Shown here in pieces: positions 35,263-38,200 of a DNA stretch of 64,000 nucleotides; within the stretch, counting starts at the first letter, position 1; each line of letters opens with the position of its first letter. A program made the position numbers. The stretch is from assembly GCF_030013205.1 (NCBI RefSeq), contig NZ_CP122648.1; one strand, written 5' to 3'. Source of the stretch: Escherichia coli. Its GTDB lineage: Bacteria; Pseudomonadota; Gammaproteobacteria; Enterobacterales; Enterobacteriaceae.

Positions 35263-38200
35263 TTATTAATAGCTGCCGCCAGGTGTCATCGGCCAGCCTG
35301 ATAAATTGTTGATCGCCGGTTTGTCGCCAACGGTACTCAAACCACCCTGCTTTGAGCATCAGCAGCCAGGGAAACCATCGCCTGACCTGACGCCATAATT
35401 GCGCCGGATAAATCTTCGCGCGAGTGGCATAGTCATTGACCAATTGCCGGTGCTGGTCAGTATTTTCCACCCACACCGCCGCCAGTTCCAGCGCGATATC
35501 ACCATCTCCTGCATACTCCCAGTCGATGAGTTTTAACCCTGACGCGCTATGCACTAAATTTCCGGCGTGGACATCCATATGCAATGGACTTAAGCGTAAA
35601 GGCCGTGGTTCCCGCGCTTTGCGCAGACGTTTTAACCTTCGCAGCCAACCCACTGTCCGCCGCGCCGGATCGCTTTGCTGCCAGTACAGTTCCAGTAACG
35701 GCAACAGCGTTATTCGCCAGCCAAAACGCGGTTGTTGATGTAGATAATACAGCAAGCCTGCCAGTTCGTTGGTATCCGGCAAATACGTTTTTACCTCGCC
35801 GGGCAGATAGTCGACCACCATCCAGTCACGGAGATATAAATGCGGCTTCGGTGCAATGCATGCGGGTAGTTGTGATAAAGCCCGATACTGGCGCAAGAAC
35901 GCGGACTGCGGCGCATCAGGATCGTGCGGCTGACGCACAACAAAACGCTGGCCCTGATGTTCAATGAGAAAACTCCCGCCACTAAGCCCACTATTAAACG
36001 TCGTGACGGGATGAAATTGCGGGAAAAAGCGCGACAGCAATTCGTCGCGCGTGATGGGATTATTGCTGCGAAACGGCACCTTTACCTGACCAGATAATTT
36101 CGCCCGTCTGCACCAGCATCAGCTGCATTTGTAGGGTCGGAGCGTTAACGTTGCCAGAGGCACTGGAGTATAGCACGTAATGAGCGCCGACATTGCGGGC
36201 AATGCCTATGGCTTTACTACGGGTGCCTAAACTGTCCTGCGGCGACAAACCTAACTGTTGCTTTGCCATCGACAGCTGCTGGGCGGAAACCAGGGTAAAT
36301 TTACCGTTATTAGCCAGCGCATTTCGCAGCGTTTCGGTCGCTTCTGCGGCATTCAGCGAACCGTTAGTACGGTTGTTAACGCTATCAACCAGCAGGACGC
36401 TACCCGCAGTCACGCCGTCAGCCCCAAGCATCTTACTGACCATCGGCTGCATTGCACCATTCCAGTCATAATGGCGAATATGCGGCGCAGGCGGTGCAGT
36501 TTGATCTTCGTGCTCAATTGGGCCTGGCTGCTGCGGGATCGTCGGCACCGAGGGCACTGTGGGGACAGGCTGTTGTGGCTCGGCTGGTTGTTCCGGCGCT
36601 GGTTTCACTTCTTCTACCGGTGCAGGTTCACGTTGCCCCACACACCCGGCGAGAAACATCGCCAGCGCGGTAATCAAGGCGTAGCGACTCATTTTTGTCA
36701 TCAAGATTCACCCCTTACAAATATAGATAAAGTCTGACTTTGTGCGCCCCCAGAAAATTGGCGCTGCCGTACAGCGTTACCGCCGAATGTGCGGGAATGG
36801 TAACGCTGCGTGGCCTTTCCAGAGGATGCATCTCCAGCCCTCTGGCGTCATACCAGTAAAAACGATAATGAACGGTAACGGGTTCTTGCCTTTCGTTATA
36901 AAGCGTTGAGGATGCTGAAGGTTGAATATCAGACGTCGAAAGGACGGGCTTTTCTGCACTGATGCCCGCAGCCAATAAAGATGACTCCATCACCAGCGAT
37001 TGCTCATCATTCACCGGAATTTCCGGATGTGAACGACAGCCCACCAGCACTAACAACGCCAGAGACACCAGCCCAAAGCATCCTTTTCTCATCGTTACAG
37101 ACCTTTATGCGCCAGCATTGGTCCCAGCGGACGGCCACCCAACAAGTGCATATGGATGTGGTAAACCTCTTGTCCGCCGTGGCGGTTGGTGTTCATGATC
37201 AGACGATAGCCATCTTCGGCAATACCTTCTTGCTCAGCAATTTTTGCCGCTACGGTGATCATGCGTCCCAGCGCCTGCTCATGCTCAGCAGACACGTCGT
37301 TCACAGTCGGAATGAGGATATTCGGAATGATCAGAATATGCGTTGGCGCTTGCGGCGAAATATCGCGAAACGCCGTTACCAGATCATCCTGGTAGACGAT
37401 ATCGGAGGGGATCTCACGACGAATAATTTTGCTGAATATAGTTTCTTCTGCCACGACATTTTCCTTTTTCAAATAGCCATGCGTTGCGCCATGCTACGCC
37501 GCGCCACACTGCGAGTATAGAGTATGGTCGAGTTAAACCTGCTCTTTCAACCTTAACTCACGATTTCTTAAGCAAAAAATCGTTTTGCTGCCGTATATAT
37601 CGCCATTATTCCCATTTCTGCCTGCGAATGCGCTGAAAAGACATTCTCTGTTTGGTTTACACGCCAAACATGAATGCGTATATTTCTCATTTGCATTTAC
37701 ATACAAAATTATTCGCACACTAAATATAACCGCTCATCACCCTCCTCCGGCATGAGCCTGACGACAACATAAACCAAGAGATTTCAAATGCTTTCAACAC
37801 AATTTAACAGGGATAATCAATATCAAGCCATCACCAAACCGTCACTACTTGCCGGTTGCATTGTACTGGCACTATTACCTTCTGCCGCTTTTGCTGCACC
37901 AGCCACTGAAGAAACGGTGATTGTTGAGGGTTCAGCCACAGCTCCAGATGATGGCGAAAATGATTACAGCGTAACGTCTACCTCTGCAGGTACCAAAATG
38001 CAGATGACTCAACGTGATATTCCTCAGTCGGTCACTATTGTTAGCCAGCAGCGGATGGAAGATCAGCAGTTACAAACGCTGGGCGAAGTGATGGAAAACA
38101 CGCGACCAGTCGTGAATTTAAAGGCGATGTCTCGGCGGAATACGGTAGCTGGAACAAAGAACGGTATGTGGCGGATTTACAAAGCCCACTCACCGAAGAT

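Follow-up and report, generated by a model that had tools for sequence, protein, structure and literature searches.

A conserved 20-nt overlap of lpoB and thiK in Escherichia coli and a terminator-like hairpin in the early codons of thiK

In Escherichia coli, the annotated start of thiK falls inside the coding sequence of the preceding gene, lpoB. This raises the questions of whether ThiK is really translated from this site and what such an arrangement means for the expression of the two genes. We examined the locus in a window of 64,000 nt (the whole stretch of DNA analysed, contig NZ_CP122648.1). An earlier note had described lpoB and thiK as overlapping by 20 nt in different frames, with the start of thiK inside the 3' end of lpoB and a 10-nt gap between thiK and nagZ, within a cluster of mixed functions; these descriptions agree with the sequence, the open reading frames and the RefSeq annotation. 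The genes concerned, from upstream to downstream, are:

37095..37454, minus strand: hinT CDS, first gene of the co-directional cluster, ending 2 nt before ycfL (ORF, RefSeq)
36715..37092, minus strand: ycfL CDS, 125 aa, ending 13 nt before the lpoB ATG (ORF, RefSeq)
36060..36701, minus strand: lpoB CDS, 213 aa, lipoprotein activator of PBP1B (ORF, TIGR02722, RefSeq)
36062..36060, minus strand: stop codon TAA of lpoB (sequence)
35255..36079, minus strand: thiK CDS, 274 aa, thiamine kinase of the choline-kinase/APH fold (ORF, NF007620, RefSeq)
35245..35254, minus strand: 10-nt spacer between the thiK stop and the nagZ GTG (ORFs, RefSeq)
34219..35244, minus strand: nagZ CDS, 341 aa, beta-N-acetylhexosaminidase, GTG start at 35244 (ORF, NF003740, RefSeq)
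33654..34196, minus strand: ycfP CDS, 180 aa, last gene of the cluster (NF003431, RefSeq)

With the upstream hinT included, the order of the cluster is thus hinT-ycfL-lpoB-thiK-nagZ-ycfP. All gaps in the cluster are 22 nt or shorter, no promoter-like site was found on the sense strand between the starts of lpoB and thiK, and direct RNA coverage crosses the junction of the two genes. The lpoB-thiK locus was found in 5425 of 5426 complete genomes. LpoB matches TIGR02722 with 218 bits (cutoff 110.55), and its N-terminus, MTKMSRYALITALAMFLAGC, carries a lipoprotein signal together with the lipobox Cys. The thiamine kinase activity of ThiK reportedly goes back to the genetics and biochemistry of Melnick and colleagues in 2004. 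A hinT-led operon has previously been called "apparent" on the basis of in-silico analysis (PMC3130732).

The start codon of thiK

The overlap and the sites that bear on the choice of a start codon are the following:

36119..36121, minus strand: TGA in the thiK frame, upstream limit for any thiK start
36084..36087, minus strand: Shine-Dalgarno-like AGGT, 4 nt upstream of the GTG, within TCA-GGT (Ser-Gly) of lpoB; putative ribosome-binding site
36077..36079 (read 36079..36077), minus strand: GTG start of thiK, embedded in GGT-GCC (Gly-Ala) of lpoB; first ATG, GTG or TTG after the in-frame TGA
36060..36079, minus strand: lpoB/thiK overlap, 20 nt, different frames (sequence, RefSeq)
36038..36040, minus strand: TTG at thiK codon 14 (1163299 in MG1655), nearest downstream alternative start, rejected

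Read on the minus strand, lpoB ends with ...TCA GGT AAA GGT GCC GTT TCG CAG CAA TAA, and the thiK frame begins with GTG CCG TTT CGC AGC AAT AAT CCC... The overlap comprises bases 2 and 3 of the seventh-last lpoB codon followed by the last six codons including TAA, and on the thiK side codons 1-6 and two bases of codon 7. Three E. coli genomes carry this 20-nt overlap in their RefSeq annotation: one whose sequence matches the 601-bp query without a difference, one divergent strain and K-12 MG1655 (lpoB 1162638..1163279; thiK 1163260..1164084). Since the coordinates agree in K-12 MG1655 and the other strains, the overlap is standard annotation and already known; it is real but ordinary.

We consider it highly probable (roughly 0.85) that the GTG at 36079..36077 is the real start of thiK, with translation beginning within the last 20 nt of lpoB. 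Between the upstream in-frame TGA and codon 14, this GTG is the only ATG, GTG or TTG, and an upstream alternative start is thereby excluded in the window. Some other strains carry an additional in-frame GTG 24 nt upstream, which is not conserved.

Conservation of the overlap across Enterobacteriaceae, which the earlier note had named as a check, was found in a comparative set of 81 lpoB-thiK junction sequences from this family. In 80 of them, a GTG stands at precisely this 20-nt distance from the lpoB stop with the thiK frame open, and the sole exception (L039) has a TTG two codons downstream, still within lpoB, giving a 14-nt overlap. None of the 81 sequences contains a stop or a frame-breaking indel between the GTG and codon 10. 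A GTG within GGT-GCN of a single genome could be due to chance, whereas its conservation in 80/81 sequences is not. Part of this conservation is forced by lpoB, because two of the three bases of the GTG are non-synonymous lpoB positions. Its middle T is the four-fold synonymous site of the lpoB Gly(-7) codon and is T in 80/81 sequences, with an entropy of 0.10 bit. Of ten other Gly sites of lpoB, nine range over 0.85-1.79 bit; the remaining one, Gly(-9), belongs to the Shine-Dalgarno-like motif, with 0.43 bit and a third position that is T in 76/81, and the third position of Ser(-10) in the same motif is A in 64 and G in 17 of the 81 sequences, and nothing else. Judged from this sequence comparison, selection has evidently kept the Shine-Dalgarno-like motif and the GTG in place across Enterobacteriaceae.

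Distant orthologues in other Enterobacterales families retain the gene order hinT-ycfL-lpoB-thiK, and their overlaps measure 17-23 nt. The 20-nt geometry recurs in Erwinia sp. HR93 and Symbiopectobacterium, each with an ATG as the start, which in Symbiopectobacterium is homologous in position to the GTG; these two ATG users represent two other Enterobacterales families. The recurrence of the overlap geometry beyond the family suggests that the arrangement predates Enterobacteriaceae.

The ThiK protein was also informative as to its N-terminus. It matches the NCBIfam thiamine kinase model NF007620 over residues 1-274 of 274 with 553 bits (cutoff 206), and TIGR02721 with 337 bits (cutoff 299) in an alignment that begins only at residue 26. 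Among 20 diverse ThiK proteins, conservation of the N-terminus sets in at about residue 5, and T10, R11, D12, L15, R17, F19 and P20 are invariant. In an AlphaFold model (mean pLDDT 85.7), residues 1-6 are disordered and residues 11-18 form a confident helix, which is opened by R11 and D12 and adjoined by T10. Top Foldseek matches of the model were the LicA choline kinase (TM 0.73) and macrolide/aminoglycoside phosphotransferases, and a search for solved structures related to ThiK by sequence found none.

The earlier note had offered the alternative that thiK starts at a downstream in-frame codon and the overlap is an annotation artefact. On this reading thiK would start past the lpoB stop, e.g. 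at the codon-14 TTG (36040..36038) or at Met86, and there would be no functional overlap. We regard this as very improbable: as a start codon, GTG is weaker than ATG, gene callers favour the longest form of an ORF, and the late onset of the TIGR02721 alignment as well as the predicted disorder of residues 1-6 would fit a shorter protein, but a start at codon 14 would leave out the invariant T10, R11 and D12 and cut the confident helix, codon 14 itself is not conserved as TTG (ATT, ATC, GTG, GTT, CTG and others in other genera), the NF007620 match begins at residue 1, and neither the intact frame from GTG to codon 10, nor the fixed lpoB-synonymous T, nor the ATG at the homologous site in two other families agrees with it. 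The supplements of TRAINSPOTTER N-terminomics contained no entries for thiK or lpoB, and none for either gene were present in an acid-stress Ribo-seq paper. Once the initiator Met is removed, trypsin would leave just PFR as the N-terminal peptide of ThiK, a probable reason why proteomic evidence is missing. For annotation, the comparative support is independent of gene callers, and the long-standing GTG start and 20-nt overlap of thiK appear to be correct.

Translation of thiK from within lpoB

If thiK is translated from this GTG, the C-terminal codons of lpoB would carry its ribosome-binding information, with the purine-GGU in Ser-Gly and the GTG in Gly-Ala. We surmise that some ribosomes bind the internal Shine-Dalgarno-like motif directly, and that others finish lpoB and then reinitiate locally at the GTG 20 nt back. 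In view of the GTG start, the short Shine-Dalgarno match (4 nt only) and the long overlap, the output of thiK is probably low, and the junction would lower expression between lpoB and thiK rather than couple the two genes stoichiometrically. The predicted RNA fold around the thiK start is no more stable than that of shuffled sequences (z = 0.24) and thus does not point to a ribosome-binding site hidden by structure, through which coupling would be enforced; such a structure-masked site was dropped as a candidate.

A region of Rho-dependent termination has been mapped within thiK in MG1655 (PMC7815308), where coverage falls from 182 to 51 in the absence of bicyclomycin and from 96 to 85 in its presence. 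Such a region would be expected in a gene with poor translation, which supports a low output of thiK.

These features also matter for work on lpoB. Deletions or C-terminal tags that alter its last ~30 nt would also hit the ribosome-binding site and start of thiK, and the lpoB-silent exchange GGT to GGC, turning the GTG into GCG, would be a clean translational knockout of thiK.

A hairpin in the early codons of thiK

Shortly after the lpoB stop, the coding sequence of thiK contains a further element:

36024..36050, minus strand: terminator-like RNA hairpin, GCGCGACG, loop AAUUGC, UGUCGCGC (36050..36029), followed by UUUUU (36028..36024)

It begins 9 nt past the TAA of lpoB (6-9 nt for the covarying hairpin) and covers thiK codons 10-17 and the start of F18-F19. 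With an 8-bp stem including six GC pairs, a 6-nt loop and the UUUUU, it is the top-ranked terminator-like site of the cluster. The tract after the stem is UUUUU in E. coli and is interrupted (UAUUUC or UAUUUU) in most other genera.

Across the 81 sequences, 96.3% of the cells in the stem alignment are paired, and three pairs show changes on both sides. Compensatory, synonymous changes are seen across genera. At pair 33-48, where both positions are synonymous, we counted CG in 41, UA in 34, UG in six and CA in none of the sequences; E. coli and Klebsiella carry CG, and UA was seen in Kosakonia, in Kluyvera and in part of Enterobacter. Kosakonia and Kluyvera combine CGT at Arg11 with TCA at Ser16, the E. 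coli codons being CGC and TCG. By mutual information, pair 33-48 comes 17th among 8778 column pairs, and it changes state about seven times on a neighbour-joining tree, with UG intermediates. The covariation score of the hairpin was reached by 0 of 500 shuffles, a control that is not to be read as a probability, and as the species are related, the covariation counts are not independent events. Drift in GC content does not readily explain the exchange of CG and UA, since both paired sites would have to shift together.

RNAalifold predicts the same helix. The stem consists largely of first and second positions of the conserved T-R-D and S-R codons, and the pairing therefore partly follows the protein sequence. 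A synonymous-recoding test on the hairpin region gave p = 0.013, with a mean of -13.2 kcal/mol versus -8.1 kcal/mol for the recodings; codon choice strengthens the hairpin. Loci of other Enterobacterales families contain a different GC hairpin with a U-rich tail about 35 nt past the lpoB stop, which was the first-listed terminator-like site on the sense strand at each of the three distant loci scanned and the top site overall at two of them. No Rfam covariance model matched within 35800..36300 at E <= 1.

What the hairpin does is a more tentative matter. It is possible, if rather doubtful, that the junction constitutes a transcriptional or post-transcriptional step-down, in which the hairpin would act either as an intrinsic terminator of low strength or as a stem that protects the 3' ends of hinT-ycfL-lpoB transcripts arising from Rho termination in thiK, and would be melted by thiK-translating ribosomes at codons 10-17. 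Its rank among the terminator-like sites of the cluster, the near-complete pairing with covariation at a synonymous pair, the consensus helix, the stabilizing codon choice, the analogous hairpins of other families and the position of the Rho region further downstream in thiK are all consistent with such a role. Against it, no 3' end for lpoB or thiK is listed in the curated Term-seq tables of MG1655 (PMC7815308, supplementary files 1 and 3), and bicyclomycin restores most of the downstream coverage, so that intrinsic termination at this site can hardly be strong. The interrupted U-tract of most genera, the share of the pairing that is dictated by the protein, the relatedness of the species behind the covariation counts and the lack of an Rfam match weigh in the same direction. 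The TERMITe supplements likewise contained no entries for lpoB or thiK.

More speculatively still, the junction might be a conserved, compact module for expression partitioning, in which the frequency of thiK initiation sets the flow of transcripts into thiK-nagZ-ycfP. Ribosomes that stop at the end of lpoB would spare the hairpin, leading to termination or to 3'-end protection of the hinT-ycfL-lpoB message, and those that initiate thiK would melt it. If the hairpin is an attenuator or a 3'-end stabilizer, it would explain how one operon supplies its upstream genes and a rarely needed thiamine kinase at differing output, and it would be a further case in which a coding sequence also encodes a regulatory RNA structure. 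It is the only part of this locus with discovery potential and may merit testing, and its sequence should be kept in mind when the locus is engineered.

Translational coupling and comparison with known systems

The earlier note had proposed that the overlap reflects tight translational coupling, a plausible inference under which ThiK synthesis would strictly need ribosomes that end lpoB and reinitiate, so that ThiK output is tied to that of LpoB. Co-directional genes, a thiK start within 20 nt of the lpoB stop and an overlap length that is remarkably constant among genera all fit this proposal, and ribosomes can indeed reinitiate at a nearby upstream site after termination, as described for the coat/lysis genes of phage fr with their 34-nt overlap (PMC10666635). 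The evidence at lpoB/thiK nevertheless makes strict dependence unlikely. Overlaps of -4, -1 and -8 nt dominate natural gene pairs, others being uncommon, and reinitiation is described as local; efficient coupling is linked to these short overlaps and falls steeply with distance (PMC10666635), whereas the thiK start lies at -20 nt and combines a GTG with a Shine-Dalgarno match of just 4 nt. Nor is there significant RNA structure that would mask the ribosome-binding site, and the Rho-dependent termination region indicates sparse ribosome cover on thiK. Moreover, absolute-proteome data place NagZ, encoded further downstream, at about the molar abundance of LpoB, and expression of the cluster is thus not a simple coupled cascade. 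LpoB and ThiK are not known to form a complex as subunits, which also counts against tight coupling.

The lpoB/thiK junction can be compared with several known arrangements. Termination-reinitiation pairs of the trpB-trpA type, including native E. coli pairs (Huber et al., PMC6728339, PMC10666635), likewise lie on the same strand in one apparent operon, and have the downstream start in the 3' end of the upstream gene with an embedded Shine-Dalgarno-like motif, as is the case here. The lpoB/thiK pair differs from them by its overlap of 20 nt rather than the dominant 4, 1 or 8 nt and by its GTG start, and no complex is known in which its two products are subunits. In the coat/lysis genes of phages fr and MS2, for which Adhin and van Duin proposed a scanning model, the lysis start precedes the coat stop by tens of nucleotides, 34 nt in the case of fr, and ribosomes get to it directly after termination; dependence on termination was shown experimentally and the start is otherwise inaccessible (PMC10666635). 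Unlike these phage genes, lpoB/thiK has a Shine-Dalgarno-like motif and no evident masking structure.

As for the hairpin, the E. coli sequence has both the stem-loop and the U-tract of an intrinsic terminator, whereas mapped 3' ends are absent from the MG1655 tables searched. Intra-operon terminators or attenuators and the stem-loops that protect the 3' ends of Rho-terminated transcripts (Dar and Sorek 2018, PMC6061677) differ from the lpoB/thiK hairpin in that the latter is embedded in the downstream gene's coding sequence, with a U-tract that is short or interrupted in most genera. The lpoB/thiK hairpin nonetheless shares with these elements a GC-rich stem-loop followed by Us after a stop codon and, likewise, Rho-dependent termination mapped downstream.

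Locus anatomy and annotation

On the E. coli chromosome in the window, fhuE and ndh flank a minus-strand cluster, hinT-ycfL-lpoB-thiK-nagZ-ycfP, and two of its genes share sequence:

36060..36701, minus strand: lpoB (PBP1B activator lipoprotein), TAA stop at 36062..36060
35255..36079, minus strand: thiK (thiamine kinase), GTG start at 36079..36077

On the minus strand lpoB ends TCA GGT AAA GGT GCC GTT TCG CAG CAA TAA, and thiK, one base off the lpoB phase, begins GTG CCG TTT CGC AGC AAT AAT CCC ATC ACG CGC GAC, the two overlapping by 20 nt; the nagZ GTG (35244) follows 10 nt past the thiK stop. 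The earlier note had these coordinates, the overlap and the 10-nt gap right, as judged from the sequence, its ORFs and RefSeq, and its label of a functionally heterogeneous operon is fair, with synteny kept across families. An identical 20-nt overlap is found in RefSeq for a strain matching the whole 601-bp query, for a strain of ~97% identity and for K-12 MG1655 (lpoB 1162638..1163279, thiK 1163260..1164084), and 5425 of 5426 complete E. coli genomes carry the lpoB-thiK locus. The overlap is standard annotation, already on record; since the locus is annotated identically across strains, its observation is not new, and the point at issue is whether the annotated start is correct. The fold of ThiK is an ordinary choline-kinase/APH fold.

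Two side observations concern neighbouring sequence. The lpoB ORF reaches one codon further 5' to a TTG (36704; minus strand, 36701..36704), while the 213-aa RefSeq protein starts from the ATG at 36701. Relative to strain CFSAN061763, which shows no other difference across the ~1.8 kb of the comparison, the plus-strand fhuE has a 238-bp deletion at ~38094..38103, with 10-bp microhomology at the junction and a frameshift leaving ORFs 37788..38309 and 38168..39739. The best 8 of 5,425 complete E. coli genomes align to the junction only in two segments separated by 238 bp, so this deletion seems to be either rare or unique.

The start codon of thiK and its conservation

As an alternative, the earlier note had considered a downstream thiK start, with the overlap an annotation artefact. 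The thiK frame is closed upstream by a TGA (36121..36119), the stretch from there to the GTG holds no ATG, GTG or TTG, and the first downstream candidate is the TTG of codon 14 (36040..36038). T10, R11, D12, L15, R17, F19 and P20 are invariant in 20 ThiK proteins (59-72% identity to the window protein), and invariance at T10, R11 and D12 places the beginning of the conserved protein 5' of codon 14. In the AlphaFold model (mean pLDDT 85.7) residues 1-6 are disordered and residues 11-18 form a confident helix, which a start at codon 14 would be predicted to truncate. Codon 14 is moreover a non-start codon in most genera, and the match to NF007620, the NCBIfam thiamine kinase family, begins at residue 1. 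Together, these four lines exclude the codon-14 TTG.

Conservation was assessed in 81 sequences, namely 80 fetched Enterobacteriaceae loci, one per species, and the window. A GTG exactly 20 nt from the lpoB end, in the thiK frame and open into the conserved region, is present in 80 of them, which bears out the conservation of the overlap across the family. The middle T of this GTG is the third base of the four-fold synonymous lpoB Gly codon -7 and is T in 80/81 (entropy 0.10 bit), compared with 0.85-1.79 bit at nine further Gly sites of lpoB in this alignment. The tenth site, T in 76/81 (0.43 bit), lies within a purine-GGT motif ending 4 nt 5' of the GTG, and the third base of the Ser codon before it is always a purine, A in 64 sequences and G in 17. 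At the sequence level, constraint of this kind is the mark of a start codon with a short Shine-Dalgarno element, both kept within another gene. The sole exception, Enterobacter sp. ENT03, has GCA in place of the GTG and, two codons on, a TTG inside lpoB that leaves a 14-nt overlap (locus L039, 2489..2497). Both GTG and TTG are present in six Kluyvera loci (L035, L037, L043, L044, L052 and L063), a pattern that looks like start-codon turnover.

Distant ThiK representatives (36-47% identity) are encoded in the same gene order, hinT-ycfL-lpoB-thiK-nagZ, and the overlaps called there are 17, 20 or 23 nt. Symbiopectobacterium has an ATG at the exactly homologous position, within the lpoB codons AAT-GCT, and in Erwinia sp. 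HR93 an ATG within GAT-GTT likewise gives 20 nt. These comparisons show the overlap to be widespread across the order, which suggests that it is old. Such breadth, together with the codon-14 evidence, refutes the artefact alternative; the annotated GTG overlap is confirmed as real and widely conserved.

Some loci depart from this arrangement. Public records for Symbiopectobacterium (L090/L091) differ on the thiK start, 288 aa from ATG or 295 aa from a GTG 21 nt upstream. In a small-contig lineage (L084, 2102..3352) thiK directly follows hinT after a 42-nt gap, without ycfL, lpoB or overlap, between tmk-holB-tatD-hinT upstream and mfd downstream. In L093 (GCA_018141985.1, CP073338.1) lpoB is split into a pair of short ORFs, nagZ is fragmented, and the ORF called as thiK extends into former lpoB sequence; this degraded cluster looks pseudogenised.

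Translation of thiK relative to lpoB

Ribosomes might reach the GTG by two routes: some would bind directly at the internal AGGU, and others would finish lpoB at its TAA, 20 nt downstream, and reinitiate locally; reinitiation is reported as a steeply local event (PMC10666635). Coupling would be obligatory if structure masked the thiK start, and no sign of masking was seen there, the local fold being no stabler than shuffled sequences (z = 0.24). In an MG1655 bicyclomycin experiment, a Rho-dependent termination region lies within thiK (peak 1163767 (+); Rho score 3.16, p = 1e-7), with upstream/downstream coverage of 182/51 without and 96/85 with bicyclomycin (PMC7815308, supplementary file 2). 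The peak corresponds to ~35570 (minus strand) in the window, inside thiK, and suggests that transcription is polar from lpoB to nagZ. Rho action within a coding sequence usually means that few ribosomes are there. In an absolute-proteome data set the molar amount of NagZ, encoded further downstream, roughly equals that of LpoB, so expression does not simply cascade along the cluster.

The earlier note had proposed tight coupling. The GTG start, its 4-nt Shine-Dalgarno match, the Rho region, the NagZ abundance and the uncommon overlap length, natural overlapping pairs being overwhelmingly -4, -1 or -8 nt (PMC10666635), all argue that coupling is not tight. We therefore consider tight translational coupling somewhat unlikely, and the junction reads as a probable step-down from lpoB to thiK.

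A hairpin in the 5' coding region of thiK

36050..36029, minus strand: terminator-like hairpin, GCGCGACG, loop AAUUGC, UGUCGCGC; first-ranked in the terminator scan
36024..36050, minus strand: hairpin with UUUUU, inside thiK codons 10-19

The hairpin begins 9 nt past the lpoB stop, its stem-loop being coded by codons 10-17 (T-R-D-E-L-L-S-R). Over eight hairpin pairs, standard pairs occupy 96.3% of cells in the 81 Enterobacteriaceae sequences, though conserved codons contribute much of the stem through their first two positions. The third positions of Arg11 and Ser16, both synonymous, pair as C-G (41), U-A (34) or U-G (6) and never as C-A, a compensatory pattern. By mutual information this pair stands 17th among 8778 column pairs; the higher-ranked pairs listed (15 of 16) are adjacent columns or clade-marking lpoB substitutions. 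C-G occurs in Escherichia/Citrobacter/Salmonella, Klebsiella/Raoultella and part of Enterobacter, and the U-G intermediates in the E. cloacae complex; the neighbour-joining tree gives ~7 state changes, and as the species are related, these counts are not independent events. RNAalifold recovers the same helix unaided. Synonymous recodings of this peptide fold into a weaker hairpin than the real codons do (mean -8.1 vs -13.2 kcal/mol; window p = 0.013; p <= 0.05 in 54% of species).

In most genera other bases break up the U-tract, Rfam gave no match to the hairpin region, and for MG1655 the curated Term-seq tables contain no 3' end within either lpoB or thiK. Since most of the coverage downstream returns under bicyclomycin, there is little scope for strong intrinsic termination here. 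A regulatory function is a doubtful proposition and the hairpin a modest lead; it might act as a weak attenuator, as a stem protecting 3' ends of transcripts Rho-terminated inside thiK, or as a barrier shaping the next step of terminating ribosomes.

The window-type hairpin is absent from the other Enterobacterales families examined. Most of these have a GC-rich hairpin of another kind, CCGGCGGC-N4-GCCGCCGG or CACCCGGC...GCCGGGUG, and then a U-rich tail, ~35 nt past the lpoB stop in the thiK 5' coding region:

L083, 2558..2577: other-family hairpin
L090, 2555..2574: other-family hairpin
L095, 2559..2574: other-family hairpin
L086 and L088: other-family hairpin also present

It is the first-listed sense-strand terminator-like site in all three loci scanned and the top site overall in two, and compensatory differences between lineages are visible in it.
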